Shown here piece by piece: positions 11,066 through 52,654 of a stretch of DNA of 60,247 nucleotides. Each line of letters starts with the position of its first letter. Position 1 is the first letter of the stretch. Position numbers and translations under genes: made by a program. Under the pieces are notes generated by a model. It was not told the DNA's origin. It searched no databases and saw nothing but the letters and a program-made list of their open reading frames with translations. Location of the stretch: assembly GCA_025463875.1 (NCBI GenBank), contig JAODBI010000317.1:1-60247 (forward strand). The letters run 5' to 3'. This DNA comes from Actinomycetes bacterium (GTDB lineage: Bacteria > Actinomycetota > Acidimicrobiia > IMCC26256 > PALSA-610).

Positions 11066-11083
11066 GCAGGCTCGCCGCTCGAG

Positions 11084-11377: not shown

Positions 11378-11610
11378 GCAGTCAGTCTTCCAAGCGCGTC
11401 AAGCGGATTCCGCCGACCGCGTGTCGCCGTCACTCTCCGCTGTGGGGAAACCGCAAAAATGGGTTGAAACCATCTCGAAAGCGAAATGTGTCAAGGTTTT
11501 CACGGCGCATGCGGCCGGACACGTTTCTCGGGAGTCGTGATCCCATTCCCTCTGCCCGGGGGCGTGTCCGGAGCGCCGACCTGCCCGCAGGGTCGACCCG
11601 GAGCGCGCCG

Positions 11611-12688: not shown

Positions 12689-12780
12689 GAGGAGAATGTT
12701 ACCGAGAGTGCCGGAGCCCGTTCCAGGGCGATGTCCGGCGGCGGAGTCGGGCGAGTCGCCTACGCTGTGTGCCCCAACTC

Positions 12781-12857
12781 GGGGACGTAGCTCAGCTGGC
12801 TAGAGCACCTGCTTTGCAAGCAGGGGGTCGTGGGTTCGAGTCCCATCGTCTCCACCA
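12781..12857 (+). tRNA. tRNA-Ala (anticodon TGC), CCA encoded
   Basis: GGGGACGTAGCTCAGCTGGCTAGAGCACCTGCTTTGCAAGCAGGGGGTCGTGGGTTCGAGTCCCATCGTCTCCACCA. The G3:U70 identity pair is present, the anticodon loop is TTTGCAA and the T-loop is TTCGAGT. Confidence 0.95.
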
Positions 12858-12870
12858 CTGGCACTACAAA

Positions 12871-12902
12871 CTCAGAAACGGCGTACTGACGCCGTTTCTG
12901 AG
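12871..12902 (+). terminator. perfect 14-bp stem / 4-nt loop hairpin just downstream of tRNA-Ala
   Basis: ctcagaaacggcgt-actg-acgccgtttctgag. No U-tract follows, so intrinsic-terminator function is only plausible. Confidence 0.5.
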
Positions 12903-13445
12903 GGGTTGATATGTCGCCTCGCCGACAAGCAGATGCGCCATATTCGAACTCGCAGGCGCTCGACCGCGATCCGACCGAGTGGTGATCACGTGATCGCCCA
13001 CGGCTACCGCTCCGGCATCGGCCACAGCGTCCTCATCAACGTAACTTCCCGGGGCGTCCTTCCCCACGACGACCACCATCGCCACGACGTCGAGCAACAT
13101 GTCGAGCGCGACACCACCAGGCTTCGGCGCGTCGCCTGGTCACGTCGCGCGGAACCACTGGCTGGCGTTCGTGGTGCCCAGTTGCGCACGTGTTCGAGTC
13201 GGCCGCGCACGAGCCCTCTCGATCGATCGGTTGGGTGACCTTCGTCACTGACGGGCGCGAACCGCAGGTACGGGTTCAAGTCGTTGTCGCCCCGCGACCG
13301 ATAGCTCTTGTGCCAGCGAGAGTTGGCGGACGAGGCGTTGATCTGTCGGCCTGTAGTTGGTTGCCTGGGCGGCAGGGAGCTAGTGGCGAACCCGGCGTCC
13401 TGTTGTTCGTTGTGCGCTTCGGCGCCACACTTCAGGAGCGGGTAG

Positions 13446-15125: not shown

Positions 15126-15310
15126 GTTTGGAACCTCTCGGTCGCGCTGTGGGCTGCAATGACATGCGTTGTTGCAGCCCACAGCTGTGTCAGTTTCTGA
15201 CGTACCTGCGGAGCAGGCGTCTCGGATTGTTCGCTGGACTGTTGTCCCGGCGATATGCACCCTTGATCGGCGCGCGATTAAGGGAGTTCGGGTGCCGCCG
15301 ATACGGGGGG

Positions 15311-34566: not shown

Positions 34567-34607
34567 TCCTCACCTCTTCCCAGGTCGAGTGTGTGCGTAG
34601 GCGCGGA

Positions 34608-37100: not shown

Positions 37101-37968
37101 GGTGTTCGCGGTCGCCGACGTGCACTATCGCTATCTCGAGCGGTTCGTCGCTCTGGCCGGCGTATCGCTCGACGTTCACGCGGGCGAACGTGTCGGGCTG
37201 CTCGGCGCGAATGGATGCGGCAAGTCGACCCTGCTGAAGGTATTGGCCGGGCTCGTGCATCCCGACCGCGGCACGGTGAGCGGCTTCGGGAAGGAGCTGA
37301 CGGAAGCCGCGCTCGAGGACGAACAGTTCGCCCGTGGGTTCCGCGCTCGGGTCGGCTTCGTCTTCCAGAGCTCCGACGCGCAACTCTTCTCGCCGACGGT
37401 CCGCGACGAGGTCGCGTTCGGTCCGCTGCACCTCGGTTTCGATGGCGCCGAGATCGAGCAAAGGGTCGACGACGTGCTCGCGCTCCTCGGCATCGCCGAG
37501 CTCGCCGACCGCGCGCCGTATCAACTCTCCGGAGGCGAGAAGAAGCGCGTGGCGATCGCGTCGGTGCTCGTGACCAATCCCGACGTGTTGCTGTTCGACG
37601 AGCCGACCGCGGCGCTCGATCCGCGCACGCAGCACTGGCTGCTCGACCTCGTCGTCGAGCTGCATCGGGCGGGCAAGACCATCGTCTGCGCGACGCACGA
37701 TCTCGCGAGCCTCGACCAGGTCGCCGACCGGTGCATCGTGCTGTCGGAGAACCACGACGTCGTCGCGATCGGCCCTCCGCAGGAGATCCTCGCCGACGTC
37801 GACCTGCTCGAAGCGACGAACCTTGTGCACACCCACGAGCACCGTCACCGGAACGGGATCCACACCCATCGCCACGATCTCGACCATCACCGGCCCTCGA
37901 TATCGGCGAACTGGGAGGCCGATGAGTTGCGGACGCATTCCACGGAGCGAGGAACCCCGACGTCATGA
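37087..37968 (+). CDS. cbiO: ECF transporter ATPase CbiO with His-rich C-terminal tail
   Basis: Walker A is GANGCGKST, the signature is LSGGEKKRVAIA and Walker B is LLFDEPTAALD. The tail reads HTHEHRHRNGIHTHRHDLDHH. Confidence 0.9.
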   Translation: MSSTEVFAVADVHYRYLERFVALAGVSLDVHAGERVGLLGANGCGKSTLLKVLAGLVHPDRGTVSGFGKELTEAALEDEQFARGFRARVGFVFQSSDAQLFSPTVRDEVAFGPLHLGFDGAEIEQRVDDVLALLGIAELADRAPYQLSGGEKKRVAIASVLVTNPDVLLFDEPTAALDPRTQHWLLDLVVELHRAGKTIVCATHDLASLDQVADRCIVLSENHDVVAIGPPQEILADVDLLEATNLVHTHEHRHRNGIHTHRHDLDHHRPSISANWEADELRTHSTERGTPTS

Positions 37969-38453
37969 GCATCACCGCCATCCGCGCCATCGAAGCGTTG
38001 CGCGCCGAAGGCCGTCGCATCACGACGGCTCGGCGCACGATCATCGAGTTGCTGGGCGCCACCAACGATCATCTCACCGCGGAGCACATTGCCACCGCAG
38101 TGCAACACGCATATCCCGAGATCCATGTGTCGACCGTGTATCGCACGCTCGAGTCGCTCGACGAGTGGGGTCTGGTCGAGCACGTGCACCGCGGTCACGG
38201 TGCCGCGTTCTTTCATCTCGCCGCGTCGCATCCGCACATGGTGTGCGAAGCGTGCGGTCGCGTGATCGACGTCCCGCAGGAGGAGTTCGACGCGCTGGTC
38301 GCGCGCGTACGCGACGTGTACGGCTTCGACATCGACGTCGCGCACAATGCGCTCATGGGCCGCTGTCTCGTGCACGATCCTCGCGCCGGCGGTCTCCTCG
38401 CGCCGCCGGTCTCCTCGCGTGAGGGGGCCGGACCGGGCGCACGGGACGGTTAG
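37965..38453 (+). CDS. Fur-family metalloregulator (Nur/Zur-like by context)
   Basis: The start overlaps the cbiO stop. The wHTH region reads RITTARRTIIELL...HLTAEHIA...VSTVYRTLESL. The His cluster is HVHRGHGAAFFHL..HPHMVCEACG. Confidence 0.85.
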   Translation: MSITAIRAIEALRAEGRRITTARRTIIELLGATNDHLTAEHIATAVQHAYPEIHVSTVYRTLESLDEWGLVEHVHRGHGAAFFHLAASHPHMVCEACGRVIDVPQEEFDALVARVRDVYGFDIDVAHNALMGRCLVHDPRAGGLLAPPVSSREGAGPGARDG

Positions 38454-38530
38454 GAAGGCCTAGCGCGACCACACCCGACGGCCTAGTGTCGAGTGGGCCG
38501 GGTGGAATCGGTGCGGAGGTTGCGGGAACG

Positions 38531-41500
38531 ATGCTCTTTCCACTCGTCGCGCGCGCTCGTCGCGCGGGCGTAGTCGTCATCGTGACGGCCTTCGTCTTCA
38601 GCGGCATCGTCAGCGTCGTCTCCACGACACCGGCAAATGCGGCGGGGACAGCGACGCTCGTGCAGCACCCCACGCGCCAGACGACCGCCGACTTCCCGCC
38701 GAACACCGATTTCGCGGTGCCGTGGACGGTTGCGCCGACGCCGGGTGACACCTTTCTCGTCGCGGCCAGCAACTACTGCTCGACATCGTCGACGACGCCG
38801 GCAATCACATCTGATCCGGGTGGTTGGACGCTCGCGACGCACGCCTTCGGCACGAACGAAGGTGGATTCATGTGGGGCAAGTTGCTGCTGTGGCAGTGGA
38901 CCGGCGCCGGTGCGCCCGGGAACGTCGTCGTGCAGATGCAAGGTGGTACGCCGTCGTGCGACATGAGCGTCGCCTCCTTCGAGTATCAGGGGCTGCAACC
39001 GAGCCCCGTCGACGTGAACTTGCAGACGAGTTTCAACGGGACCCCGGCCCAGTGGACGCTGCCGACCGTCACGACGGCGCAGGACAACGAATTGCTGTTC
39101 GTCGTCGAAGCCAACCGCAAGACGATCACCTCGGTCACGTCCGTCACCCCGGGCTTCACGATCGAGTCGAACAAGGTGAGCAGCGGCGGCACCACCGACA
39201 TGGGGCTTGCGATCGCCGACCGGGTGGCGACGACGGCCGGCGCGTACACGCCGGTGATCAATTTCTGCGGGGGCTGTGGCGGGCATCCCGGCGCGATCGT
39301 GCTCGGATTGAGGATCGCGCCCGCCTCCGGCACCGCGCCCGCGATCTCGAATGTCGCGGTCAGCAACATCACCGGTACGTCGGCCACGGTGACGTGGACG
39401 ACCGATCAGGTGTCGACGAGCGCGGTCGCGTACGGCTCCTCGACCACATACGGCTCGTCGGCGACCAGCGCCTCCGGAACGTCGCACTCGATCACGCTCA
39501 ACGGGCTCGCGACCGGATCGACGTATCACTACCAGGTCAGCTCGACCACCACCGGCGGCACCACGACGGCGTCGGATGCGACGTTCACGACGCTCACGCC
39601 GCCTCCCGTCATCACCACCGGCCCGACACCTTTGGCCATCAGCGCGACGACTGCGACGATCGCGTGGTCGACCGATCGCGCGTCGACGAGCCAGGTGCAG
39701 TACGGCACCGCCCCGAGCTATGGCAGCACGACGACACTCGACGGGAGCAACGTCACCGCGCACTCGCAGACCCTCGTCGGGCTCACGCCGTCGACCACGT
39801 ACCACTTCGCCGTGACGAGCGCGGGTGCCGGAGGAAGCGTGACATCCGCGGACGCGACGTTCGTCACGACCGCGCCCGGAAAGACGAATCAGACGATCAC
39901 GTTCGGCGCGCTCTCGGGGGCAACGCTGACGCAGTCACCGTTGACCGTCGCGGCGACGGCGACCTCGGGGCTGCCCGTCTCGTTCTCGTCCTCGACGCCC
40001 GCGGTGTGCACGAGCGGCGGTGGGCTCGGTGCGACGATCACGTTGCTCGCGCCGGGCACGTGCACCCTGCAGGCCGACCAACCCGGTGATGCCACGTTCA
40101 ACCCGGCGCCGCCCGTGCAGCATAGCTTCGGCGTAGCCGATGCAAGCCAGATCGCGTACCCCGATCTGATCGGCGAGATCCCGACCAACGGATTCGGGAT
40201 CTCCCATCCGACCACCACCACGAAGGAGTTCGACTACACGCACATCATCTACAACGGTGGCGCCGGCCCGCTCGAGGTGCAGCCGACCAACTACAACACC
40301 ACGACGAATCTCGCGACCGCGGTGCAGCAGCTCTACAGCTACAACGGGTCGACGCCGGTGCTCGCGCAACAGCTCACGGCGCGCGATCAGTTCTTCTACC
40401 ACCAGGCCCACGGCCACTATCACTTCCCGCTCGCGACCTTCGGGCTCTACGGCGTCAACCCCGACGGCTCGATCGGAAGCGCGGTGGCGGTGAGCCCGAA
40501 GAACGGGTTCTGTCTCGGCGACGACGTACGTCTCGACGCATCGCTCCCGCACTCGCCCGCGGTCAAGGGTTACGACGGCAGCACGTGCACGAATCCCAAC
40601 GCGGTGCGCGGCATCTCGTCGGGCTGGGGCGACCGCTACGACAAGGCCGATCCGGGCCAGGCGATCGACATCACCGGTCTGCCCGACGGCACCTACTGGT
40701 TCCACTCCGTCGTCGACCCCGACAACAACTTCGCCGAGTCCGACAAGACGAACAACGTCACCGACATCAAGGTGCAGCTCAGCGGCGACACGGTGACGCC
40801 GGTGAGCCCCCTCATGTCGCAAGGATCGTTCGTGTTCGATCAGTCCTTCGTCGTCGACGCGCTCGGTCCGGTCGCGACGCCGGCTTTCAGCACCTCGGCG
40901 CCGAACGAGATGCTGGTCGCGTTCGTGAGCGGCTTCAGCCAGGTGACGACGCTCACCTCGACGGTGGGCGGCGGGGGCTTGACGTGGACACTCGCCAAGC
41001 GCGCGAACGCGCAACCCGGAGGCGTCGACGTCTGGACCGCGATGGCCCCGACGCCGCTTTCGAACGTGGTTGTCAGCGCGACGACGAACTGGCCCGGCCG
41101 CGACACGTCGATGACGTTGTTCGCGATCAAGGGCGCGTCGGGGATCGGCGCGACCGCGAGCCGGAGCGCGGCGTCCGGTGTGCCGTCGATCTCGCTCACG
41201 ACGACCAAGGCCGGCTCGTGGGTGATGACGAACGGCAACGACCCGAGCACCTACTCACCGCACCAGATCGGCGCGGGCAAGACGATGTTCCACCAGTACC
41301 TGGATTCGTCTCAGCGCCAGGGTGCGTGGATGGAGGCGACGACCGCGCCGGTACCCACGGCGGGCACGGTCGTTTCGTTCGCCGATACGACGCCGCCGAA
41401 CGACCAGTGGAACGAGGTCGCGGTGGAGATCCTCCCGGCCGCGAGCGTCGACGTCACCGCGCCGACGATCAGCGCGGTCGCGGCGAACAACCCGGGCCCG

Positions 41501-44326
41501 ACCAGTGCTTCGGTGACCTGGACCACCGACGAGCCCGCGACCTCGAAGGTCGAGTACGGCCCCGATCCGTCGTTGGGACAGTCGACGAGCATCGATCCGA
41601 CACTCGTGAACCAGCACGGTCAACCGCTCAACGGCCTGACATCGAACACGACCTACTCGTACCGGGTCGTGAGCACCGACGGGTCCGGCAACACCGCGAC
41701 CGGCCCGACGTCGACGTTCACCACCGCGCCGCCGCGCACGACGCCGCCGGTGTTCACGAACGTGCATGTCGTCGACCTCCAGGCCGACCAGGCCACGATC
41801 TCGTGGACCACCGACGAACCCGCCGATACCCGGGTCGACTACGGCATCACACCCGGGTACGGGACGGCGTCGGCTTCGGATCCGACGATGGTGTCGACGC
41901 ACTTCGCGCTCATCACGAATCTCGCGCCGACGACCGTGTACCACTACCGGGTCGACAGCACCGACGCGTTCGCGAACGCGGGGTCGTCTGCCGACTTCAG
42001 CTTCCAGACGCTCGCGGTCGCTCCGCCGATCGTCGTGGAGCAGTCGGTCTTCCGGGACGGGACCGGCAATGTGACGACGGCCGCGTTCAACACCGCGAGC
42101 CCGGGCGATCTCCTCGTCGCGTTCGTCGGCGCCTCCGGGAACGCAGGCACACCCCAATCGGCGACCGTGACCGGTGCGGGCCTGACCTGGACTCTCGACC
42201 AACGCGCCAACGCGCAGAACGGCACCGCCGAGGTGTGGCACGCGTTCGCGACGGGTCCACTCGTCAATGCGACCGTGACGTCGACCCTCGGAACCACCGC
42301 CGACCAGTCGCTGTCGGTCGTCGCATTCAGCGGCGCGCGAGGCATCGGTGCGACGGTAGGGAGCGGTGGGGCTATCGGCGCGCCGAGCGCGGACCTCAGC
42401 ATGACGGGCGCGAATTCGCTCGTGTACGCGGTGGGCAACGACTGGGATCATGCGACCGCGCGTACCTTGCCCGCAGGTCAGTCCATCGTGCATCAGTTCG
42501 TCGACGCCGTGTCGGCCGACACGTTCTGGACCCAGGCGCTCAACGGCACGGGCGGTCCGGTCGAGTCCGACATCACGATGGCCGACACCGCGCCGACCGT
42601 CGATCGCTGGAACTTCACGGCGGTCGAGATCCAACGCCCGATCGGTGTGACGCCACCGCCTCCGACCGCGCCGCTCATCAGCGCCGTGACCGCGACGAAC
42701 ATCACCACAACCTCGGCGACGATCTCGTGGGCCACGGACCAGATCGCGACGTCGCAGGTGCAGTACGGGACGTCCGCGAGCTACGACAACTCCACGACCG
42801 TGGCTCTCGCGCCGGTGACCGGCCACACGCAGAACCTCGGTGGACTCTCGCCCGGGACCGTGTACCACTACGCGGTCACCAGTACGAACGGAGTCGGCTC
42901 GACGACGTCCGGCGACTTCACATTCACGACCGCGCCGACGCCGAAGACCCCGCAGACGATCACCTTCGGCGCGCTCGCCGACGTGCCGTTGACGCAGTCG
43001 ACGATCGCCGTGAGCGCAACCGCGTCGTCCGGGCTGACCGTGTCGTTCTCGTCGACCACGCCCACGGTGTGCACGGTCACCGGTAGCACCGTGACGCTGC
43101 TGACCGGCGGCCTGTGCACCGTGCGCGCCGACCAGCCCGGCGACGCGACCTTCGCGGCGGCCGCGCCGGTTTCGCAGAGCTTCACGGTCGGGGCCGCGAA
43201 GATCGACCAGACGATCACGTTCGCCGCGCTCGCCGACCGGACCCTGCTGCAAACTCCCCTCACCGTGACTGCGGTCGCCTCCTCGGGACTGGCGGTTGCG
43301 TTCTCGTCGACCACACCAACGGTGTGCGCGGTCACCGGCGCGGCGGTCACGCTGTTGGGCGGAGGAACGTGCACGATTCAGGCCGGCCAAGCGGGCAACA
43401 GCGTCTACAACGCCGCGCCGGCGGTGCAGCAGAGCTTCACGGTGACCAAGGCCGCGCAGACGATCACGTTTGCCGCGGTCGCGAACACGACATTGGCGCA
43501 AAGTCCGGTCGCCGTGACCGCGACCGCCTCCTCGGGACTGGCGGTCGCGTTCTCGTCTACCACACCAACGGTGTGCGCGGTCACCGGCGCTTCGGTGTCG
43601 CTGCTGGCCGTCGGGACGTGCACCATCCAGGCCGCGCAGGCGGGCAACGCGATCTACACCGCCGCCCCGCCCGTCCAGCAGAGCTTCACGGTCTCGCCGA
43701 TCACCGGGATCTCGGTCGACAAGACCGTCTTCAAGGACGGCAAGGGCGCGCAGACGACCGCCGCGTTCAGCACGGCCGCCGCGGGCGAGGTGTTGGTCGC
43801 GTTCGTCGGCGCCGACGGTACGGCTACCGGCCAGACCGCGACCGTTACCGGCGCGGGACTGACGTGGACGCTCGTACGGCGGACGAATGTTCGGCCCGGC
43901 ACAGCGGAGATATGGCGCGCGGTCGCCCCGTCGGTGCTGACCAATGTCACGGTGACGTCGACCCTCGGTCTGGCGACTGCCTTCGACCAGTCCTTGACGG
44001 TTGTGGCGTTCAGGGGCGCGACCGGAGTAGGTGCGAGTGCGAGTGCCAACGCGGCCACGGGTGCGCCGACAGTCGCGTTGACGACGACGAAGGCGGGCTC
44101 GTGGGTCTACGCGGTCGGCAACGACTGGGACCGCGCGGTCGCGCGCACGGTCGGCGCGGGCCAGGCGATCGTCCACCAGTTCGTCGACGCGTCGATCGGC
44201 GACACGTACTGGACGCAGTCGGCCACCGGACCTACCGCGGCCCTCGTGACGGTGGTGTCGATGTCGGACACCGCCCCGACGAACGATCGCTGGAACTTCA
44301 CCGCCGTCGAGGTGCTCGCGGGCTAG
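38531..44326 (+). CDS. giant secreted/anchored multidomain protein: 4 copies of an unassigned ~200-aa module, 5 FN3-like domains, 4 Ig-like (QTITF-type) domains and a central lysyl-oxidase-like domain
   Basis: The ATG at 38531 lies 12 nt after ggagg, and the N-terminus has a hydrophobic signal/anchor. The LOX-like region at about 40150-40790 carries HGHYH, PKNGFCLGDD, GWGDRYDKADPGQAIDITGLPDGTYWF and ESDKTNN. The repeat architecture was read from the translation. Confidence 0.85.
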   Translation: MLFPLVARARRAGVVVIVTAFVFSGIVSVVSTTPANAAGTATLVQHPTRQTTADFPPNTDFAVPWTVAPTPGDTFLVAASNYCSTSSTTPAITSDPGGWTLATHAFGTNEGGFMWGKLLLWQWTGAGAPGNVVVQMQGGTPSCDMSVASFEYQGLQPSPVDVNLQTSFNGTPAQWTLPTVTTAQDNELLFVVEANRKTITSVTSVTPGFTIESNKVSSGGTTDMGLAIADRVATTAGAYTPVINFCGGCGGHPGAIVLGLRIAPASGTAPAISNVAVSNITGTSATVTWTTDQVSTSAVAYGSSTTYGSSATSASGTSHSITLNGLATGSTYHYQVSSTTTGGTTTASDATFTTLTPPPVITTGPTPLAISATTATIAWSTDRASTSQVQYGTAPSYGSTTTLDGSNVTAHSQTLVGLTPSTTYHFAVTSAGAGGSVTSADATFVTTAPGKTNQTITFGALSGATLTQSPLTVAATATSGLPVSFSSSTPAVCTSGGGLGATITLLAPGTCTLQADQPGDATFNPAPPVQHSFGVADASQIAYPDLIGEIPTNGFGISHPTTTTKEFDYTHIIYNGGAGPLEVQPTNYNTTTNLATAVQQLYSYNGSTPVLAQQLTARDQFFYHQAHGHYHFPLATFGLYGVNPDGSIGSAVAVSPKNGFCLGDDVRLDASLPHSPAVKGYDGSTCTNPNAVRGISSGWGDRYDKADPGQAIDITGLPDGTYWFHSVVDPDNNFAESDKTNNVTDIKVQLSGDTVTPVSPLMSQGSFVFDQSFVVDALGPVATPAFSTSAPNEMLVAFVSGFSQVTTLTSTVGGGGLTWTLAKRANAQPGGVDVWTAMAPTPLSNVVVSATTNWPGRDTSMTLFAIKGASGIGATASRSAASGVPSISLTTTKAGSWVMTNGNDPSTYSPHQIGAGKTMFHQYLDSSQRQGAWMEATTAPVPTAGTVVSFADTTPPNDQWNEVAVEILPAASVDVTAPTISAVAANNPGPTSASVTWTTDEPATSKVEYGPDPSLGQSTSIDPTLVNQHGQPLNGLTSNTTYSYRVVSTDGSGNTATGPTSTFTTAPPRTTPPVFTNVHVVDLQADQATISWTTDEPADTRVDYGITPGYGTASASDPTMVSTHFALITNLAPTTVYHYRVDSTDAFANAGSSADFSFQTLAVAPPIVVEQSVFRDGTGNVTTAAFNTASPGDLLVAFVGASGNAGTPQSATVTGAGLTWTLDQRANAQNGTAEVWHAFATGPLVNATVTSTLGTTADQSLSVVAFSGARGIGATVGSGGAIGAPSADLSMTGANSLVYAVGNDWDHATARTLPAGQSIVHQFVDAVSADTFWTQALNGTGGPVESDITMADTAPTVDRWNFTAVEIQRPIGVTPPPPTAPLISAVTATNITTTSATISWATDQIATSQVQYGTSASYDNSTTVALAPVTGHTQNLGGLSPGTVYHYAVTSTNGVGSTTSGDFTFTTAPTPKTPQTITFGALADVPLTQSTIAVSATASSGLTVSFSSTTPTVCTVTGSTVTLLTGGLCTVRADQPGDATFAAAAPVSQSFTVGAAKIDQTITFAALADRTLLQTPLTVTAVASSGLAVAFSSTTPTVCAVTGAAVTLLGGGTCTIQAGQAGNSVYNAAPAVQQSFTVTKAAQTITFAAVANTTLAQSPVAVTATASSGLAVAFSSTTPTVCAVTGASVSLLAVGTCTIQAAQAGNAIYTAAPPVQQSFTVSPITGISVDKTVFKDGKGAQTTAAFSTAAAGEVLVAFVGADGTATGQTATVTGAGLTWTLVRRTNVRPGTAEIWRAVAPSVLTNVTVTSTLGLATAFDQSLTVVAFRGATGVGASASANAATGAPTVALTTTKAGSWVYAVGNDWDRAVARTVGAGQAIVHQFVDASIGDTYWTQSATGPTAALVTVVSMSDTAPTNDRWNFTAVEVLAG
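42950..43695 (+). repeat. 3 tandem ~249-bp intragenic repeats (Ig-like QTITF...QSFTV domains), partly near-identical at DNA level
   Basis: For example, gcctcctcgggactggcggNtgcgttctcgtcNaccacaccaacggtgtgcgcggtcaccggcgc occurs in copies 2 and 3 with 2 mismatches over ~65 nt. A fourth, diverged copy lies at about 39890-40140. Confidence 0.85.
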
Positions 44327-44340
44327 CGCGCGCGTGCCAC

Positions 44341-44529
44341 ATGGCACACCCGACAGCGCTCGTCGTGGCAATCGTCAGGATCGGCGAGGAGCTCGGCCTC
44401 GACGCCGACAGCCGGAACAAGCTCCACTGGGCGGCGCTCCTGCACGACGTCGGCAAGCTCGACGTGGCGGCCGCGATCCTGAACAAGACCGAGAAGCTCA
44501 CCGCTGACGAATGGCAGCTAGCGGGATGA
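44341..44529 (+). pseudogene. truncated HD-GYP/HD-domain fragment (62 codons)
   Basis: MAHPTALVVAIVRIGEELGLDADSRNKLHWAALLHDVGKLDVAAAILNKTEKLTADEWQLAG* matches only the central part of HD-GYP domains (LLHDVGK, PDxIL-like, KLTxxE). The N- and C-terminal parts are missing. Confidence 0.6.
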
Positions 44530-44630
44530 CCGCGGATGACAGCGGGTACTAGCACCATTGGCCACTAGGAGTTGTGACCGGCGGACGCAGATGCTGGGGA
44601 CGTCAAACCCCCCAACGTCCAGGAGTTCCC

Positions 44631-45125
44631 ATGCGCAAGCCTTCCGCCCGGCTCGTCGTCGCGGCTCTCGCGATCCCCGTATTCGGCGGATTTGCGACCT
44701 ACGCCGCGGCCCAGGTGAGCAGCACGCCGTCGCCGCAGGTCGTGATCCCCGCCGTCCGTACCTCTTCGACGAAGACCCCGTCGTCCGCGAACACCGCTTC
44801 CCGCGTGCCCGGTCACGACGTCAACGACGACAAAGGCGGACTTCGCAACGACAGCCTTCGCACTGCGACCGGCTCGACTCCGGCGTCGACGCCCAACACC
44901 GTCGACGACCACGGCAACGACGCGCTCAAAGGAACCGGCGTTGCCAACCCGGCCGGCACGACTCCGGCATCGACCCCCAACACGATCGACGACCACGGCA
45001 ACGACGCGGTCACCGGGAGCAGCGTGCCGACGACCGGCGGCTCGACACCGGCGTCGACGCCCAACACCGTCGACGACCACGGCGGTCGCAACCGCGGCCA
45101 GGGCGGCAGCGGTCACGGCTCCTGA
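44631..45125 (+). CDS. secreted repeat protein with 3 x 28-aa G(S/T)TPASTPNT(V/I)DDHG... repeats
   Basis: An RBS aggag precedes the ATG at 44631, and the signal peptide is MRKPSARLVVAALAIPVFGGFATYAAAQ. Exact 84-nt repeats occupy 44871-44954, 44955-45038 and 45039-45122, ending at the stop codon. Confidence 0.7.
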   Translation: MRKPSARLVVAALAIPVFGGFATYAAAQVSSTPSPQVVIPAVRTSSTKTPSSANTASRVPGHDVNDDKGGLRNDSLRTATGSTPASTPNTVDDHGNDALKGTGVANPAGTTPASTPNTIDDHGNDAVTGSSVPTTGGSTPASTPNTVDDHGGRNRGQGGSGHGS

Positions 45126-45146
45126 GTCGTCGCCGCAGCTACTCGG

Positions 45147-45800
45147 CTATCCCGGATCGGGCGCGGGCAGATGCTCCTTCGCCCACAGCGCCGCCTGCGT
45201 CCGATCCGTGACCCCGAGCTGTTGGAACACCGCGGTCAGGTGTGCCTTGACCGTGCGTTCGCTGATGCCGAGTCGGCGCGCGATCTGTTTGTTCGCCAGT
45301 CCGGTCGCCACCAGACCGAGCACCTCGGCCTCCCGCCGGCTCAGGTTGCGCGACGGCTGTCGCGCTCGTTGCGAATCGAGCAGGACCCGGGCCGCGGTCG
45401 GGTCGAGTGGCGCTCCGCCGGCGTGCGCGGCACGGATCGCGCCGATCACCTCGTCGGGTGTCGCGTCCTTCAACAGGTAGCCACTCGCTCCGGCCTGCAG
45501 CGCGTCGAGGACGCGCCGTTGCTCGGTAAACGAGGTGAGGATGACGACGCGCAGGTGGCGTTCGTCGGTCGCGGCGGCGGCGAGCACCCGGCGGGTCGCT
45601 TCGATCCCGTCGACGACCGGCATCGACAGATCCATCAACACGATGTCGGGCCGCGCGGTCGCCGCGAGCGCGACTGCTTCTTCGCCGTTGTTCGCGGTAC
45701 CGACGACTTCGATGTCGTCGGCGGTCGCGAGCACCTGCCGGAGCCCGCTGCGAACGACGGCGTGGTCGTCGACGATGGCCACTCGAATCACGTCTGTCAT
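45147..45800 (-). CDS. NarL/FixJ (LuxR-type HTH) response regulator
   Basis: The receiver domain reads IRVAIVDDH...DIVLMDLSMP and the LuxR HTH reads LSRREAEVLGLVATGLANKQIARRLGISERTVKAHL. The start overlaps the kinase stop (ATGA). Confidence 0.9.
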   Translation of the reverse strand: MTDVIRVAIVDDHAVVRSGLRQVLATADDIEVVGTANNGEEAVALAATARPDIVLMDLSMPVVDGIEATRRVLAAAATDERHLRVVILTSFTEQRRVLDALQAGASGYLLKDATPDEVIGAIRAAHAGGAPLDPTAARVLLDSQRARQPSRNLSRREAEVLGLVATGLANKQIARRLGISERTVKAHLTAVFQQLGVTDRTQAALWAKEHLPAPDPG

Positions 45801-47125
45801 GTGAACGGCACCTCCACCCGCACCGTGGTGCCCGCGCCCGGCGCGGATTCCACGGAGAGCCGGCCCCCCGCGTCGCCGACGAGATCAGTCAGTCCGTGCA
45901 GCCCGAAGTGACCTTCGCGAGCGCGGCTCGGGAGCTGCGCCGGGTCGAACCCGACGCCGTCGTCGATCACCTCGAGCGTCGCGATCCGATCGTCGTCCGA
46001 CACGCGCATGGTAACCGTCGTCGCGTCCGCGTGCGCCAACACGTTTCGCAACGCTTCCTGAGCGGCCCGGTAGAGCAGACCCGACACCGCGGCGGGCGGA
46101 GAACCGGTCAATCCTTCGTCGTCGAGCGTGGTCACAATTCCCCTCCCACTGGCACGCGCGAGGAGGTCGGTGAGCGCGGGCACCAGGCCCTCGTCGAACA
46201 GATTGGGCGGATAGATCTCCACGAGGAGGGAGCGCAGGGCTTTCACGCTCACCCGCACCTCGTTCGCGGACTCGCCGAGGAGTTGCGCGGTTTCGGGTTG
46301 GACGTCGTCGCGACGGGCCGCGCCGCCCAAGGTGAATGCGACGCCGACCAGATTCTGGACCACGCCGTCGTGGATGTCGGCCGCGATGTGCCGCCGTTCG
46401 GTGTCCGACGCATCGATGGCGCGTTGCAGCAGACCCTCACGTTCGCGCTGGCGTTGGCGTAGCCGCCGCGCGAGAGACCACGCGAGTGGGAGCTGCACGA
46501 GCTCCAGCGCGACGAGCGCACCCAGGGAGATGGGTGCGAAGCTCCGCCAGATGCGTGCACCCGACGACGACACCGCCGAGTAACGGAAGTAGCCCTCGAA
46601 CAGGAGCCGTTGACCGTTGGGCGCGCGGATCGGGAGATACACCTCGAGCAACTTGCCGTACGTGCGCTCGAATCGATTCTCGGGTTTCGACAGGTCGCTG
46701 ACGTCGGCCTTGATCACGCCGCCGTCGAGCGCGGCGAGATCGTCCGGGGCGAGCGTGTACCGCGATCCGATGAGCCGGGGCTCGTCCGAATACACGATCG
46801 TGCCGTCGCGGTTCCAGATCTTCACGCGGATGAGTTGGTCGTCGAGCACGTCGCGCTGTACGACGGCTCCGACCTTCCGTGCGGCGGCCGGATTCCCGGT
46901 GAGCAGCCCGTCCCTCACGACCGGTTCGACGAGTCCCTGGGCCTTGGCGAGCGTCTTCGTGCGCGCGTCCACGACGGCCTCGCGCTCACCCACATGTCGG
47001 CTCGCGACCGCGGTGGCCAACCCGACGATCACGACCGCCACGATGCCCGCCAACGTGAACTGGCTGACCTGACGCGCCACCGTCCACCTGCCCGCCGAGT
47101 CGGGGGCATTGCTGCTGCGCGGCAT
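45797..47125 (-). CDS. sensor histidine kinase (HisKA_3 / NarX-DesK type) with extracytoplasmic loop
   Basis: The ATG at 47125 is preceded by gaaggag. Two TM segments flank a loop of ~150 aa. The H-box reads ERRHIAADIHDGVVQNL and the HATPase region reads EALRNVLAHA...DDGVGF...HFGLHGL. Confidence 0.85.
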   Translation of the reverse strand: MPRSSNAPDSAGRWTVARQVSQFTLAGIVAVVIVGLATAVASRHVGEREAVVDARTKTLAKAQGLVEPVVRDGLLTGNPAAARKVGAVVQRDVLDDQLIRVKIWNRDGTIVYSDEPRLIGSRYTLAPDDLAALDGGVIKADVSDLSKPENRFERTYGKLLEVYLPIRAPNGQRLLFEGYFRYSAVSSSGARIWRSFAPISLGALVALELVQLPLAWSLARRLRQRQREREGLLQRAIDASDTERRHIAADIHDGVVQNLVGVAFTLGGAARRDDVQPETAQLLGESANEVRVSVKALRSLLVEIYPPNLFDEGLVPALTDLLARASGRGIVTTLDDEGLTGSPPAAVSGLLYRAAQEALRNVLAHADATTVTMRVSDDDRIATLEVIDDGVGFDPAQLPSRAREGHFGLHGLTDLVGDAGGRLSVESAPGAGTTVRVEVPFT

Positions 47126-47514
47126 CCGCTCCTTCACACGCCCCGACTCACGATCGCGTTTGGTCCGATCGCCGGTTCTGCGGAGATTCCCGAGAGACGT
47201 ACCCACGACGACACGCGATCGACGAGGATCGCACAGGCTTCCTGCGCTGAGGTGAATTCTCCCGTTTGATGGCTTCCTGACCGGAACCGGCGGGCGGGCG
47301 CGGGCGGGCGCGGAGGCCGGTCGACCGCCCAGCGCCCGCTCGCGTGAGGGAGTCGCATTCGCGGAGGGCGGTTGCGCGCGGAGAGTAGTGTGCGAGGCCC
47401 CCGGCTTGATGGCGTAGTTCCTTTCGTCCAGAATTCCGGGCTGGGTAGGGCTGTTGGGGCACGCGGAACCGCCGAGCGCGGATTTTCGTGCAGGGATGCA
47501 GAGGCGGAAATCGA

Positions 47515-50500
47515 ATGGCGTCACGCCGGACACTCGCGCTCCGGGTGGGAGTCGCGTCGCTCGCGGCATTTGTGGGCGTGTTCGGACTCGTCACGCGCAG
47601 TGTCGGCGCGGCGGCGACCGTGCTCGTCGGCGACACCACCGTCGAGCCGGCCGTCGATTACAACCCGGCCGGCGTCGCCGAGGCGTTCCCCTTCACCGCG
47701 ACCGCGGGCGGGACCGTCAGCCAGATCAACGTGTACGTCGACGCCGGAGCCACCGCGACCCGCGTCGCAGTCGGCATGTACGCCGACACCGCCGGGCACC
47801 CCGGCCCGATGTTGACCCAGGGGATCATCGGGTCGGTCACCAACGCGGGCTGGAACACCGCAACCGTGCCCTCTGTATCGGTGGCTTCCGGCACGAAGTA
47901 CTGGCTCGCGTTGCTCGCGCCGCTCGGCGCCGGGGTCTTGAAGTACCGCGACAAGTGTTGTGCGAGCCCGATCGTCTCCGAAAGTGCGAACCAGGCCTCC
48001 GACGGCTCGCTGCCCACGACCTGGACGCGCACGTCGAGTTGGAGTGACGGGCCCGCGTCGATCTACGCCGCGACCGCGGCCGCGCCCGGTCCTGTTCTCA
48101 CGCAGGTTGCCGCCGCGCCGACGAACAACGGCGCGACGATCACGTGGACGACCGATGTGCCCGCCACGTCGCAGGTGGCGTACGGACCCACCGCGCAACT
48201 GGGCACGTCGAGTCCGCTCGACGCGGCGTTGACGACGGGCCACTCGGTCACGATCGGCGGGCTGCTCGCGGGCACGCAGTACTTCTTCCAGGTCTCGAGC
48301 GCCGACGCGTCGCAACAGGTGAGCACGTCGTCGGTGGCCTCGTTCACGACCACGTCACCATCGCAGCCGCCGCCGGATCAGGTCGGGCAGTGGGGTTCAC
48401 TCATCAACTGGCCGCTCGTCGCGGTGCACTCGTCGCTCATGCCCAACGGCAACGTCTTGTTGTGGGACGGTTGGGAGACACCGTCCAAGGCGGTCGTCTG
48501 GAACCCGTCGTCGCAGGCGTTCACCGACGTGACCACCGCGTCGGGCCTGTTCTGTTCGGGCCACGCCCAACTCGCCGATGGTCGCATCTTCGTCGCGGGC
48601 GGACACGATCAGGGGACCGGATTCACCGAGACCGGCATCGTCGACTCGAACATCTTCAACCCGGCAAACAACCAGTGGACGCGCGTTGCCGACATGCACT
48701 TCCCGCGTTGGTACCCGAGCGCGACGACGTTGCCCGACGGGCGCGTGCTCGTCATCTCCGGCATGACGACCTCGGGTCGTTGGGCCGACACCCCCGAGGT
48801 GTACAACCCCGCGACCAACACGTGGACCTTGCTCACCGGGATCTCGACGCCCGAGGTGCACGAAGCGGAATACCCTCTGACGTCGGTCATGCCCGACGGT
48901 CGCGTGCTCGTCGTCGCCGGGAGCACCGGCGCCGCGTTCATCATGGACGTCAACGCGCAGACGTGGACACCGGTTCCCGGTTCCGCCGGCCACGTCAACG
49001 GCTCGGCCGCGTTCTACGCGCCGGGCAAGGTTCTGTACACCGGCGGCGGCAACACTGCGAGCGAGAGCAACCCGGCGTTCACCGGTGCGTCGGTGCTCGA
49101 CGCCACGGTCGCCAACCCGGCGTGGCGTTCCGTCTCGCCGATGGCCAAGACGCGCTACATGCACTCGACGACGGTGCTGCCCGACGGCCAGGCGTTCATC
49201 GTGGGCGGCGCGAACGTCGCCAGCCAACAGACGACGAACCAGCAACTCGTCGACGAGCTGTGGAACCCGTCGACCGAAGCGTTCACGCCAGTGCCGCCGA
49301 TGATCGACGGTCGGATCTACCACTCCACGACGTTGTTGATGCCCGACGGTCGGGTGCTGGTCGCCGGTGGCGGACGGTTCAACGCCAACCCCGACCACTT
49401 CACCGCGCAGTACTACTCCCCGCCCTATCTCTTCAAGGGCGCGCGGCCCACGATCAGCGCGGCGCCCGCGAGCCTGAGCTACGGCCAGCCGTTCACGGTG
49501 CAGACGCCCGATGCGGCGTCGATCTCCTCGGCGGTGCTGGTCGACCTCGGCAGTGACACGCACACCCAAGACTTCAACCAGCGCCGCCTCCCGCTCACGG
49601 TGACTCCCGGTAGCGGCTCGATCTCGGTGCAGGGGCCGGCCAACAGCGCGCTCGCGCCGCCCGGCCACTACATGTTGTTCGTTCTCAACGCGCAGGGCGT
49701 GCCCTCGGTCGCGTCGATGCTCTCGGTCGGCGGGAGCGGGTCGGTCACCCCGCCGTCGGTGTCGATCGTGTCCCCCGCCGCCAACGCGACGGTCGGAGGC
49801 TCGGTGAACGTGACCGCGTCGGCCTCGTCGTCGAACAGCATCACCGGCGTGCAGTTCCTGCTCGACAATCAGCCCCTCGGCGGAACCGTCACCACGCCGC
49901 CCTTCCAGACGACGTGGAACACCGCGACCGCGACGAACGGTGCGCACACGCTGACGGCGAAGGTCACCGACTCGACCGGTGCCATGGCAACCTCGCAATC
50001 CGTCACTGTCACGGTTTCGAACGGAGCGGTCGCGACGCTCTCCGCCGAGGCCCAGGTGTTCGCCGACGGCAAGACGACGGTGACCACGCCCGGACTCACG
50101 ACCGCCAACGCGGGCGACCTCCTCGTCGCGTTCGTCGGCGCCGACGGTCCGTCGACGCTCGGCCAGACCGCCACCGTGTCGGGTGGGGGTCTCACCTGGA
50201 CGCGGGCGCGCAACCAGGCCGCGCAACCCGGTGATGCCGAAATCTGGTCGGCGCGCGTGAGCAGCACCGTGACCAACGCCACGTTCAGTGCGACGTTGGG
50301 CAAGACCGGCTACGACCTCTCGTTGAGCGTCGTCGCGTTCGCGAACGCGGCGGGAGTGGGTGCGTCCGCGGGCGCGTCGGCATTGCATGCCGCGCCGAGC
50401 GTGCCGTTGACGACGACCGCACCGGGGTCGCTGGTCTACGGAGTCGGAATCGACTGGGACAATGCCGTCGCGCACGTTCCGGTGGCCGGACAGGCCATCG

Positions 50501-51957
50501 CGCATCAATGGATCGACAGCACCACCGGCGACACGATGTGGTCGCAGGGAACACAGGCGCCGGTCGCCACGACCGGCGCAACCGTCGCGCTCGCGGATTC
50601 GTCGCCGACGACTGACCGCTTCAACCTGGCGGCGGTCGAGGTCACCGCATCGGTGACGCCGCCGCCCACGACGACCACGACCACGACGGCTCCGACGACG
50701 ACCACCACGGTCGCGCCGACGACCACGACTACGACGGTTCCGGCGACGACCACCACCACGACGACCGTGCCGCCGACGACCACCACGACTGCGACGACGA
50801 CCAGCACGACGACGACCACCACGGTGCCGCCGACGACGACGACCACGACGGCTCCCACAACGACCACCGCCGCACCGACGACCACCACGACCACGACGGT
50901 GCCGGCGAACAATCCGCCGGTCATCAGCGGGCTCGCGGTCTCCAACATCACGACCACGGGCGCGACCATCACCTGGAACACCGACACCGCGGCGATCGGC
51001 CAGGTCGAGTACGGCACGTCGGTCTCGTACGGCACGACGACCGCGCCCGACGCGGTGGCGTCGACCGCGCACTCGCAGACCCTCACCGGCCTGACACCGA
51101 TGACTAGCTATCACTTCCGCGCGCGCAGCTCCAACGCCGGTGGCCTGACCGTCACGACTGATCAGACCTTCACCACGCAGGCGGCGCCGGTCGGCGCTCA
51201 CGTCGACGGCCAGGTCGGTGTCAACGGCAAGACCACGGTTGCGGCACCTGCGTTGACGACGGGTACGCGCGACGACCTTGTCGTCGGGTTCGTGTCGACC
51301 GACGGCCCGAGCGCCGGCGGCCAGACGGCGACCGTTTCCGGCGGTGGGCTCACGTGGACACGCGTACGCGCGCAAGCGGCACAGCCCGGCGACGTCGAGA
51401 TCTGGCAGGCGCGCGCCACCGGCTTCCTCACCAACGCCGTGATTTCGGCCACGTTGTCGAAGACCGGATACGACCTGTCCTTGACCGTGGTGGCGTTCTC
51501 CAACGCGGCGGGTGTCGGTTCCTCGGCGGGTGCGTCCGCCAAATCGGGACCGCCGGCGGTGGGGCTCGCGACCACCGCCGCGGGTTCACTCGTCTACGCG
51601 ACCGGCAACGACTGGGACCGGTCCGTGGCCCGCACGCCGGTCGGCGGCCAGGCCCTCGTGCAGCAGTGGCTCGACACCGCCTCCGGCGACACGATGTGGA
51701 CGCAGGCGTCGACGAGCCCGTTCCCCAACTCGGGCCAGTCGGTGATCATGGCCGACTCCGCGCCGACGAGCGATCGCTTCAACTTCGTGGCGGCCGAGAT
51801 CACATCGGGGAACGGGGCTACCACGTTGCAGGCCGTCGCGGTCGAGCAGGCGGTGTCGCCTCCGAGCTTCGGTCACATCGTGCACTACGCCTTCCCGGCC
51901 GAGCCATCGACGTCGACCGCCCCGCTCGACAAGCGCGCGCTCGGCCTGATCGCGTAA
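47515..51957 (+). CDS. giant secreted copper-radical-oxidase (galactose/glyoxal oxidase, AA5-like) multidomain protein
   Basis: Domain order is signal peptide, DUF4082-like N-domain, FN3-like, kelch-type propeller, DUF1929-like E-set, Ig-like, 2 copies of the ~200-aa module, a Thr/Pro linker and a second FN3-like domain. The propeller carries LFCSGH, PRWYPS, RIYHST and DTHTQDFNQR. Confidence 0.9.
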   Translation: MASRRTLALRVGVASLAAFVGVFGLVTRSVGAAATVLVGDTTVEPAVDYNPAGVAEAFPFTATAGGTVSQINVYVDAGATATRVAVGMYADTAGHPGPMLTQGIIGSVTNAGWNTATVPSVSVASGTKYWLALLAPLGAGVLKYRDKCCASPIVSESANQASDGSLPTTWTRTSSWSDGPASIYAATAAAPGPVLTQVAAAPTNNGATITWTTDVPATSQVAYGPTAQLGTSSPLDAALTTGHSVTIGGLLAGTQYFFQVSSADASQQVSTSSVASFTTTSPSQPPPDQVGQWGSLINWPLVAVHSSLMPNGNVLLWDGWETPSKAVVWNPSSQAFTDVTTASGLFCSGHAQLADGRIFVAGGHDQGTGFTETGIVDSNIFNPANNQWTRVADMHFPRWYPSATTLPDGRVLVISGMTTSGRWADTPEVYNPATNTWTLLTGISTPEVHEAEYPLTSVMPDGRVLVVAGSTGAAFIMDVNAQTWTPVPGSAGHVNGSAAFYAPGKVLYTGGGNTASESNPAFTGASVLDATVANPAWRSVSPMAKTRYMHSTTVLPDGQAFIVGGANVASQQTTNQQLVDELWNPSTEAFTPVPPMIDGRIYHSTTLLMPDGRVLVAGGGRFNANPDHFTAQYYSPPYLFKGARPTISAAPASLSYGQPFTVQTPDAASISSAVLVDLGSDTHTQDFNQRRLPLTVTPGSGSISVQGPANSALAPPGHYMLFVLNAQGVPSVASMLSVGGSGSVTPPSVSIVSPAANATVGGSVNVTASASSSNSITGVQFLLDNQPLGGTVTTPPFQTTWNTATATNGAHTLTAKVTDSTGAMATSQSVTVTVSNGAVATLSAEAQVFADGKTTVTTPGLTTANAGDLLVAFVGADGPSTLGQTATVSGGGLTWTRARNQAAQPGDAEIWSARVSSTVTNATFSATLGKTGYDLSLSVVAFANAAGVGASAGASALHAAPSVPLTTTAPGSLVYGVGIDWDNAVAHVPVAGQAIAHQWIDSTTGDTMWSQGTQAPVATTGATVALADSSPTTDRFNLAAVEVTASVTPPPTTTTTTTAPTTTTTVAPTTTTTTVPATTTTTTTVPPTTTTTATTTSTTTTTTVPPTTTTTTAPTTTTAAPTTTTTTTVPANNPPVISGLAVSNITTTGATITWNTDTAAIGQVEYGTSVSYGTTTAPDAVASTAHSQTLTGLTPMTSYHFRARSSNAGGLTVTTDQTFTTQAAPVGAHVDGQVGVNGKTTVAAPALTTGTRDDLVVGFVSTDGPSAGGQTATVSGGGLTWTRVRAQAAQPGDVEIWQARATGFLTNAVISATLSKTGYDLSLTVVAFSNAAGVGSSAGASAKSGPPAVGLATTAAGSLVYATGNDWDRSVARTPVGGQALVQQWLDTASGDTMWTQASTSPFPNSGQSVIMADSAPTSDRFNFVAAEITSGNGATTLQAVAVEQAVSPPSFGHIVHYAFPAEPSTSTAPLDKRALGLIA
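50655..50908 (+). repeat. Thr/Pro-rich low-complexity linker (about 80 aa, mostly T with interspersed P/A/V)
   Basis: The translation reads PPPTTTTTTTAPTTTTTVAPTTTTTTVPATTTTTTTVPPTTTTTATTTSTTTTTTVPPTTTTTTAPTTTTAAPTTTTTTTVPA. The DNA is ACC/ACG-rich. Confidence 0.9.
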
Positions 51958-51988
51958 ACGGGCCCGGGCGCGGCCACACTGGGTCACC

Positions 51989-52654
51989 ATGAGTGCTCCC
52001 GTGTGGTCGCAGTTGGACGCCGGCGTCGCGTTGGCGCTGGGCGCGATCCTCGTTACGGCGTCGGTGCGCAAGCTGCAGAACCCGCGCGTGTTCGCGCTCA
52101 CGTTGGAGCGGCTCGATCCCGCCGTGAACGGCCGCCGCACACTGACCCTGCGCTCGGCGTGCTTCATCGCGGTCTACGAGGCGGTGGCCGGTATCGGAGT
52201 CGTCGCGTTTCGCGGGGGCCTGGGTTTTCCGTTCGCGTGCGCGGTGCTCATCGCCTGCACTGCGTTCCTCGTCGCGTTGGGCCGGGCGGTGCAACAGAGC
52301 CTGCCGTGTGCGTGCTTCGGACGCCTCGGCCGCACCGCCGCCGGTGGACGCGAGATCGGGCGCGCGATCGTGCTCGTACTCGGCGCGTCCTTCCTGGTTG
52401 TACACCGGGCGATCGAGTCCGGTCGCGGATACGGCATCGGGCCCCTCGCGGTCGTCGCCCTGGTCGTGACCGTGGCGGCGATCGTCGCCGCCCAACGCAT
52501 CGGTGCCAAGGTCCGGCCCGGCGTGGAGTTGACGCCGGCCGTCGGCGACGACGGGGTTCCGCCGGGTCGCGCGTCCTCGGGTCGTTCGTCGTTGGGGCGG
52601 TGGGTGCGCACCATCACCGGCTACGACAGCGACCTCTACTCGACCAGCGCCTGA
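51989..52654 (+). CDS. MauE/DoxX-like redox-associated membrane protein
   Basis: 221 aa with 4-5 TM segments. The N-terminal part (GALLVTASVRKLQNP..F...L) and the LPCACFG motif resemble the MauE family. It starts 32 nt after the oxidase stop. Confidence 0.65.
   Translation: MSAPVWSQLDAGVALALGAILVTASVRKLQNPRVFALTLERLDPAVNGRRTLTLRSACFIAVYEAVAGIGVVAFRGGLGFPFACAVLIACTAFLVALGRAVQQSLPCACFGRLGRTAAGGREIGRAIVLVLGASFLVVHRAIESGRGYGIGPLAVVALVVTVAAIVAAQRIGAKVRPGVELTPAVGDDGVPPGRASSGRSSLGRWVRTITGYDSDLYSTSA

Follow-up and report, generated by a model that had tools for sequence, protein, structure and literature searches.

The lysine tyrosylquinone (LTQ) cofactor of lysyl oxidases (LOX) and the Cys-Tyr cofactor of copper radical oxidases (CRO) both form autocatalytically in characterised enzymes. 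Fungal AA5 oxidases act on environmental substrates, as does the bacterial lysine oxidase LodA, and the operon context of Streptomyces GlxA includes cslA. To our knowledge no function has been established for the bacterial homologues of LOX. A further protein of relevance here, MauE, is needed for the maturation of methylamine dehydrogenase. We have analysed a 60,247-nucleotide stretch of DNA from an Acidimicrobiia bacterium (contig JAODBI010000317.1 of assembly GCA_025463875.1; the whole stretch is called the window below) in which a giant LOX-like gene (gene A), a giant CRO gene (gene F) and a MauE-family gene lie within about 14 kb, together with a sensor kinase, a response regulator and a small repeat protein. 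The initial annotation, which was made from the sequence alone, took these genes for a single co-functional extracellular copper-oxidase system. Comparison with related loci does not support that proposal. Instead, we consider it reasonably probable that the locus is a lineage-specific juxtaposition of two independent surface oxidases in a conserved signalling backbone, with no dedicated system.

The prokaryotic LOX homologues surveyed in 2015 were mostly single-domain proteins (Grau-Bove et al., PMC4448552), and the LOX of Haloterrigena turkmenica is a further prokaryotic comparison (PMC6452851). A literature search for multidomain bacterial LOX returned nothing beyond these two papers. The giant, module-fused clade to which gene A belongs departs from this pattern, and it is new within a known kind of enzyme because the described prokaryotic LOX are mostly single-domain proteins (PMC4448552).

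The locus and its counterparts in relatives

Genes between 38.4 and 52.7 kb were called from codon-position GC and Pfam matches. The features of the locus are as follows (window coordinates; + is the forward strand; residue numbers in brackets).

37965..38453, +, FUR-family metal regulator (Pfam FUR, E 3e-25), immediately 5' of the LOX giant
38531..44326, +, gene A, secreted or anchored LOX-like multidomain protein of 1931 residues (Pfam; 82%-identical orthologue P0001)
40148..40855, +, LOX catalytic domain of A (about 555-790), where the copper site reads H-x-x-H-G-H-Y-H and both LTQ residues, Lys and Tyr, are present
40856..41467, +, beta-module copy 1 of A (791-994; blastp and hidden Markov model, HMM)
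42044..42670, +, beta-module copy 2 of A (1187-1395; blastp and HMM; AlphaFold2 predicted local distance difference test, pLDDT, 95.9)
43724..44320, +, beta-module copy 3 of A, C-terminal (1747-1945; blastp and HMM)
44341..44529, +, remnant of an HD-GYP/Big_9 cyclic di-GMP (c-di-GMP) phosphodiesterase gene, 62 codons (Pfam HD, E 5e-6)
44631..45125, +, small secreted repeat protein of 164 residues; it has a signal peptide, and its repeats, of the DDHG / GHDxNDD type, are imperfect
45147..45800, -, NarL/LuxR-type response regulator (Pfam Response_reg and GerE)
45797..47125, -, HisKA_3 sensor kinase of 442 residues (Pfam; start codon read)
47515..51957, +, gene F, secreted CRO multidomain protein of 1480 residues (Pfam; orthologues P0111 and P0121 at 90-94%)
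48370..49725, +, catalytic unit of F (Kelch propeller and E-set), which keeps the cross-link Cys and every copper ligand of galactose oxidase
50053..50673, +, beta-module copy 1 of F (856-1062; blastp and HMM)
51223..51822, +, beta-module copy 2 of F (1246-1445; blastp and HMM)
51989..52654, +, MauE/DoxX-family membrane protein of 221 residues with a C-x-C-F-G motif (Pfam MauE, E 2e-9)

The full order (FUR, LOX giant, HD-GYP, repeat protein, regulator, kinase, CRO giant, MauE) recurs in two loci, L001 and L037. Identities to the window are 82% for the LOX giant, 90% for the CRO and 79% for MauE in L001, where the FUR-LOX adjacency is also present, and 93% for the CRO catalytic region and 86% for MauE in L037. 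The complete set is seen in these two loci only, and both come from close relatives (79-94% identity). Other relatives carry parts of the arrangement. In L039 the order is HD-GYP/Big_9, repeat protein, regulator (81%), kinase (78%), an EAL/GAF gene, MauE (59%) and a DNA methylase, with neither LOX nor CRO in the locus. In L038 a MauE gene (65%) is followed by SDR, methylase, PBP, His_Phos and thiolase genes, which is the downstream backbone of the window (here SDR, DNA methylase and His_Phos_1, all on the minus strand, then thiolase on the plus strand); this locus contains no oxidase and no kinase/regulator pair. Because L038 and L039 hold parts of the backbone without oxidases, we regard MauE, the kinase/regulator pair, the HD-GYP gene and the repeat protein as a conserved backbone that is independent of the oxidases.

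The LOX genes, for their part, were followed well beyond this clade. We compared 45 loci, of which 34 were distinct loci with LOX and 32 of those were other than L001 and L037; a scan of GTDB representative genomes with the LOX-domain alignment gave 28 loci and a metagenome scan six more. The GTDB loci came from Acidimicrobiia, Microthrixaceae, Bryobacteraceae, Solibacteraceae, Terriglobia, Thermoanaerobaculia and Verrucomicrobiota among others, and further from Methylomicrobium, Methylomagnum, Azohydromonas, Myxococcota and Eisenbacteria. The clade spans at least eight phyla; the groups represented among the distinct LOX loci are Acidimicrobiia, Microthrixaceae, Acidobacteriota, Verrucomicrobiota, Gammaproteobacteria, Betaproteobacteria, Myxococcota and Eisenbacteria. 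Neighbours were sought by tblastn with all window proteins and by clustering of open reading frames (ORFs). Near LOX, tblastn found MauE, the repeat protein or the kinase in none of the 32 other loci and a response-regulator match in one (L026; weak, 32% identity). This same locus is the only one of the 32 with a CRO within about 10 kb of LOX, and none of the six metagenome loci has a CRO or MauE. Clustering of all ORFs around the LOX loci yielded no recurrent neighbour family, and the LOX homologues P0007 and P0172 sit in unrelated gene contexts.

Comparison shows the older backbone to consist of HD-GYP/Big_9, the GHDxNDD-repeat protein, the NarL-type regulator, the HisKA_3 kinase and MauE, then SDR, DNA methylase and thiolase. 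On the reading we favour, two large solo genes would have entered it in the lineage of the window. The LOX giant would have been inserted 5' of the HD-GYP gene, of which later deletions left a remnant, and the CRO giant between the kinase and MauE. As genes of the older backbone, MauE, the kinase, the regulator and the repeat protein should not be annotated as accessory genes of the oxidases.

The individual backbone genes were largely described correctly at the outset. The truncated HD-GYP gene is confirmed as a remnant by intact counterparts in relatives: a membrane protein of 659-660 residues is encoded at the same position in L001 and L037, the gene is intact also in L039, and alignment with the 659-residue version of L037 leaves about 170 nt of it in the window between two deletions (the regions compared were window 44326-44631 and L037 442-2644). 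Since two deletions have left only a 62-codon fragment, the lineage of the window has lost the HD-GYP enzyme. The kinase and the NarL-type regulator are confirmed by Pfam, and their genes, on the opposite strand, are indeed coupled, with an overlap of 4 nt. We take the kinase to be 442 residues long, as in its orthologues, as opposed to the 590 of the maximal ORF. NCBIfam matches that would give the pair an MctS/MctR-like identity lie far under their cut-offs and were not used.

The small repeat protein is secreted and has three 28-residue units, as was first reported, but the repeats are imperfect rather than exact: Tandem Repeats Finder (TRF) gives a period of 84 nt and 2.6 copies with 83% matches, and the core TPASTPNT[VI]DDHG is the sole part common to the three units. 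It belongs to no Pfam or NCBIfam family. Orthologues lie at 9579-10100 in L001, 2644-3120 in L037 and 3408-3986 in L039, all with a highly conserved signal peptide; that of L039 has 192 residues, GHDANDD repeats and the same signal peptide. The His/Asp-rich repeats (GHDANDDHG / TVDDHG) shift fast in number and unit length among close relatives. Given this composition the protein may be a metal binder.

The two oxidases and the MauE-family protein

Gene A lies in the ORF 38486..44326, with a probable start at ATG 38531 and a first possible start at GTG 38486. The prediction of a LOX-like protein of about 1930 residues with FN3- and Ig-like repeats holds good. Pfam places a Lysyl_oxidase domain at residues 631-770 (E 1e-12); the score against PF01186 is 48.6 bits compared with a cut-off of 20.4, and the match is partial (model positions 73-199 of 204). 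Five FN3/Pur_ac_phosph_N domains were found in addition to Ig-like repeats, which are encoded by a 249-nt tandem repeat in three copies, and the N-terminal stretch of about 230 residues has no Pfam match. When the LOX domain is aligned to human LOXL2 (5ze3, E 1.4e-8), its HQAHGHYH, PKNGFCL and GWGDRY motifs fall in register with the His triad, Lys653 and Tyr689 respectively. The same residues also align with a human LOX sequence, and each of the 38 related loci compared keeps those that its aligned match covers. With its three copper-binding His residues and the Lys and Tyr of LTQ in place, the domain looks catalytically competent as far as sequence can tell. Protein A resembles the lysyl oxidase family, both animal LOX/LOXL and prokaryotic LOX, in having the Pfam domain above its gathering score, in the copper and LTQ residues aligned with LOXL2 and in being secreted. 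Its clade differs from known LOX in that the proteins are giant and multidomain, with FN3 and Ig-like domains and three undescribed modules of about 200 residues directly after the catalytic domain. They have no SRCR domains, no propeptide and no collagen or elastin context.

Gene F (ORF 47488..51957; probable start ATG 47515, first possible start GTG 47488) is likewise what it was first thought to be, a secreted protein of about 1480 residues with a galactose/glyoxal-oxidase-type propeller, and Pfam and phmmer agree on this. The Glyoxal_oxid_N/Kelch propeller, in which Pfam matches Kelch_1, Kelch_2, Kelch_4 and Kelch_6, comes after a DUF4082-like domain and FN3 and is joined by GO-like_E_set (86 bits), Big_7, a linker rich in Thr and Pro and one more FN3. 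In phmmer searches the catalytic region finds galactose oxidase at E ~1e-50 and Streptomyces GlxA (4unm) at E 4.5e-49. The motifs LFCSGH, PRWYPS, RIYHST and SDTHTQ align to the active-site residues of galactose oxidase, and F keeps equivalents of Cys228, Tyr272, Tyr495-His496 and His581. With both cross-link residues (Cys and Tyr), the Tyr-His pair and the distal His present, the CRO, too, looks competent for catalysis, on alignment evidence. F is like the oxidases of CAZy family AA5 (Fusarium galactose oxidase, glyoxal oxidase, GlxA) in its Kelch propeller, E-set and conserved active-site residues and unlike them in its DUF4082-like, FN3 and Big_7 domains, its Thr/Pro linker and its two beta-modules. 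It belongs to a large actinobacterial and acidobacterial set of multidomain 'galactose oxidase-like domain-containing proteins'.

Streptomyces GlxA had been offered as a partial precedent for action on a glycan, and here the idea receives some support from the gene contexts of CRO relatives but none as regards orthology to GlxA or a cslA partner. F scores 234 bits against the NCBIfam equivalog NF052501, whose cut-off is 800, and was rejected as a GlxA orthologue. No cslA-type glycan synthase lies beside it, the neighbours being the kinase, MauE and SDR, and Pfam found no glycosyltransferase in the flanks. Its relatives are nevertheless tied, like GlxA, to the copper chaperone SCO1/SenC and to surface-glycan genes. 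The CRO-and-module gene of homologue P0124 (L006) is followed by SCO1/SenC (4753-5343) and then by a DegT / acetyltransferase / glycosyltransferase surface-glycan cluster, while before that of P0125 (L003) comes a Big_5 protein (2-676), which matches CopC weakly and below threshold, and after it come genes of glycan biosynthesis; the clusters at both loci are for amino-sugar and surface-glycan biosynthesis. A third homologue, P0145, stands alone between pheT and infC. Neither MauE nor LOX was found near any of the three. From these contexts the substrate of the CRO is probably a surface or extracellular glycan.

Each giant would be a self-sufficient, secreted copper enzyme that is presumably displayed at the cell surface, with the FN3 and Ig domains as a stalk. 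The LOX domain would generate its own LTQ and convert primary amines, of peptidyl lysine or some other amino polymer, to aldehydes with release of H2O2. The CRO, with a Cys-Tyr radical cofactor of its own making, would oxidise primary alcohols or aldehydes, most probably those of a surface or extracellular glycan, again with production of H2O2.

A MauE-family membrane gene just 3' of the CRO gene was correctly recognised, with a match to PF07291 of 38.3 bits (cut-off 27) and a gap of 31 nt between the stop of F and the start of MauE. The protein resembles the MauE of mau clusters in scoring above the gathering threshold of the Pfam family, in being a multi-pass membrane protein and in its C-x-C-F-G motif. 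The setting is unlike a mau cluster, in that Pfam scans of the locus and flanks found no MauD-like, MauA or MauB genes, and the orthologues of the window's MauE are single genes in a backbone unrelated to any quinoprotein or oxidase. No link to a client enzyme emerged from orthologues at 59-65% identity, which have no CRO or LOX neighbour (L038, L039), and a literature search on MauE/DoxX function found nothing pertinent. A 175-residue gene after the CRO of L003 was considered as a MauE-like candidate and set aside, having no similarity and no Pfam match.

The shared beta-module

Both giants carry copies of a module of about 200 residues, which was at first counted six times and thought to be private to the two proteins. 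By blastp and profile A has three copies and F has two, which makes five; a sixth, sought in the N-terminus of A, gave no match with a profile built from 343 copies. A search with the five-copy profile shows that the module, far from being private, occurs at E<=1e-3 in 2,575 cluster representatives (clusters at 50% identity); at E<=1e-30 the number is 862. The initial annotation had allowed that it might prove to be a common domain with no link to oxidases. Common it is, given this wide distribution; it is, however, strikingly enriched beside LOX and CRO domains. Among the top 150 matches, 21 are joined to LOX, 17 to CRO and 112 to neither, some of these last being gene fragments. Of the 34 distinct LOX loci, 29 have the module after the LOX domain, and in most of the others the contig ends soon after LOX. 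Among LOX proteins its copies hold position-specific orthology. The 28 long module proteins free of LOX and CRO carry RHS, PASTA, TIG, PKD, BACON, CarboxypepD_reg, SdrD_B, DMFA2_C and other extracellular domains. Each copy in the window is nearer to copies from other organisms (51-71% identity, in clearly non-orthologous matches) than to those of the other giant (46-48%).

The module matches no family in Pfam (E<=10) or NCBIfam, and it constitutes an undescribed domain family. An AlphaFold2 model from a 30-sequence alignment is all-beta with 14 strands (pLDDT 95.9, predicted template-modelling score, pTM, 0.93). Foldseek searches of the Protein Data Bank (PDB) with two models (pLDDT 90 and 95.9) gave no significant fold match, the best E-values being 0.02 and 0.015 with a TM score of <= 0.33 (<= 0.31 for the search whose best E-value was 0.015), and the matches are only weak jelly-roll resemblances. 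Conserved Trp, Asp, Asn, Gln and Arg positions, taken with the companion domains, suggest that the module binds a ligand or polymer. It would then act in targeting or binding, the partner probably being a polymer, as a promiscuous domain that has been attached to many extracellular proteins and is joined almost without exception to this LOX clade.

What emerges is a LOX clade of at least eight phyla whose proteins keep all catalytic residues and, with few exceptions, are fused to the undescribed beta-module, the same module that decorates many bacterial CROs. With a structure predicted at very high confidence, no Pfam family and no fold match in the PDB, the module is a concrete target for structural and binding studies, and its ligand, once identified, could reveal what the bacterial LOX and these CROs act on.

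Joint or separate action of the oxidases, and the wider window

Within a shared backbone the two oxidases probably act independently. Several observations weigh against reading the locus as a mere juxtaposition. The two oxidase genes stay together in all three genomes of the clade. The 31-nt gap implies that MauE may be co-transcribed with the CRO in this lineage, and the kinase and CRO genes are divergent across a 389-bp intergenic region, which would allow the regulator to control the CRO. We infer insertion of the oxidases here, rather than their loss in L038 and L039, from few genomes, and the direction of this change is to be read with that in mind. Finally, LOX and CRO also adjoin each other in a Terriglobia metagenome-assembled genome (MAG; L026, CAVULZ010000003.1, 3871-11875), where a 1349-residue CRO-and-module gene is immediately followed by one of the form module-LOX-Big_7-module. 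Two modules are found in that CRO gene, along with CarboxypepD_reg/SdrD_B domains and Big_7; a frameshift appears to split the LOX gene (ORFs 8503..9552 and 9470..11875), and a gene with DUF4082 and Ig domains comes next (12297..13889). Since its accessory domains differ from those of the window, this locus was not transferred whole. Such an independent adjacency is suggestive and unlikely to be pure chance: we roughly estimate the chance of direct adjacency over this many loci at a few percent, although the observation was made post hoc and cannot decide the matter.

A different reading is that LOX and CRO form a two-enzyme oxidative cross-linking pair, to which neither MauE nor the kinase/regulator would belong and whose shared module would steer both enzymes to the same extracellular or envelope polymer. 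Glycan aldehydes made by the CRO and allysine-type aldehydes made by LOX would then condense with amines to cross-link a matrix. We think this reading rather unlikely. The presence of one module in both giants, its regular position after LOX, its frequency in CROs, the adjacency that arose independently in L026 and was retained in L001 and L037, and the amino-sugar glycan biosynthesis genes beside CRO relatives are all consistent with a pair; the 31 of 32 other LOX loci with no CRO within about 10 kb, the CRO homologues that exist without LOX, the fusion of the module to unrelated proteins such as those with RHS or PASTA domains, and the fact that the copies of A and those of F have their closest relatives elsewhere all argue for separate enzymes. 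A broader form of the idea, which is a little more doubtful still, is that the module is a new, structurally undescribed targeting domain coupling unrelated self-processing oxidases, of LOX type and galactose-oxidase type, to one polymer in a bacterial two-enzyme system that would generate aldehydes and so cross-link the extracellular matrix or envelope. If true, this would be a prokaryotic counterpart of the LOX-driven matrix cross-linking of animals.

It is also conceivable, if decidedly unlikely, that the oxidases serve foraging or antagonism, acting on environmental polymers or free amines and yielding H2O2 or aldehydes for nutrition or competition, with no role at the cell's own envelope. 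Fungal AA5 oxidases and LodA work in this way, the window also codes for a secreted subtilase and a GH5 cellulase, and the module is found on RHS-type and glycan-binding multidomain proteins; the closest relatives of the CRO, however, sit inside clusters for surface-glycan biosynthesis, and a long FN3/Ig stalk that ends in binding modules is more usual in cell-associated proteins. Least probable of all, and in our view improbable, is the integrated system first proposed, in which MauE would mature or export a cofactor enzyme, the DDHG-repeat protein would supply or buffer metal and the kinase/regulator pair would control the set: the tight CRO-MauE spacing, the divergent kinase and CRO genes, the possible metal-binding repeats, the part played by MauE in methylamine dehydrogenase maturation and the arrangement kept in L001 and L037 speak for it, but L039 keeps MauE, the kinase/regulator pair and the repeat protein without an oxidase and L038 keeps MauE alone, neither MauE nor the repeat protein lies near any of the LOX or CRO homologues examined beyond the close clade, the dedicated partner of the CRO, where there is one, is the SCO1/SenC copper chaperone, and the cofactors of characterised LOX and CRO enzymes assemble unaided.

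The juxtaposition that we favour lies in a high-GC (about 65-72%), origin-proximal chromosomal segment, which opens with gyrase genes and whose nearest relatives are Acidimicrobiia MAGs.

1-4232, gyrB (cut by the window start), gyrA and DUF3566
6315-6389, tRNA-Ile(GAT), which with the genes above and the next tRNA marks the origin-proximal region of the chromosome
12781-12857, tRNA-Ala(TGC)

A consensus scan of 37.9-53 kb returned zero promoter-like sites, and terminator-like sites only at the rate of shuffled sequence, and so was uninformative; nor was a riboswitch or other RNA element found 5' of A or F at E<=1. The FUR gene closes a metal-homeostasis cluster at 33031-38453, which comprises DUF4331, a small protein whose N-terminus is Tat-signal-like, a CbiM/PDGLE energy-coupling factor (ECF) component, an ABC ATPase and FUR itself. 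Two ORFs of 666 and 329 residues (4288-6288 and 6693-7682, +) have coding-like codon-position GC and no Pfam match at E<=1e-5, and a 1062-residue protein with an LPG_synthase_C domain is encoded at 7877..11065. Further along, an Rfam match to the c-di-GMP-II-GAG riboswitch aptamer at 13322-13406 (+; 41.1 bits against a gathering score of 40) ends 40 nt upstream of the secreted subtilase S8 gene (13446..15125). Directly 3' of the subtilase, inside the ORF 14843..17872, lies a membrane protein with GGDEF and EAL motifs (about 15300-17872, +), which were read from the translation. Together with the HD-GYP remnant, this GGDEF/EAL protein makes c-di-GMP signalling a theme of the window.

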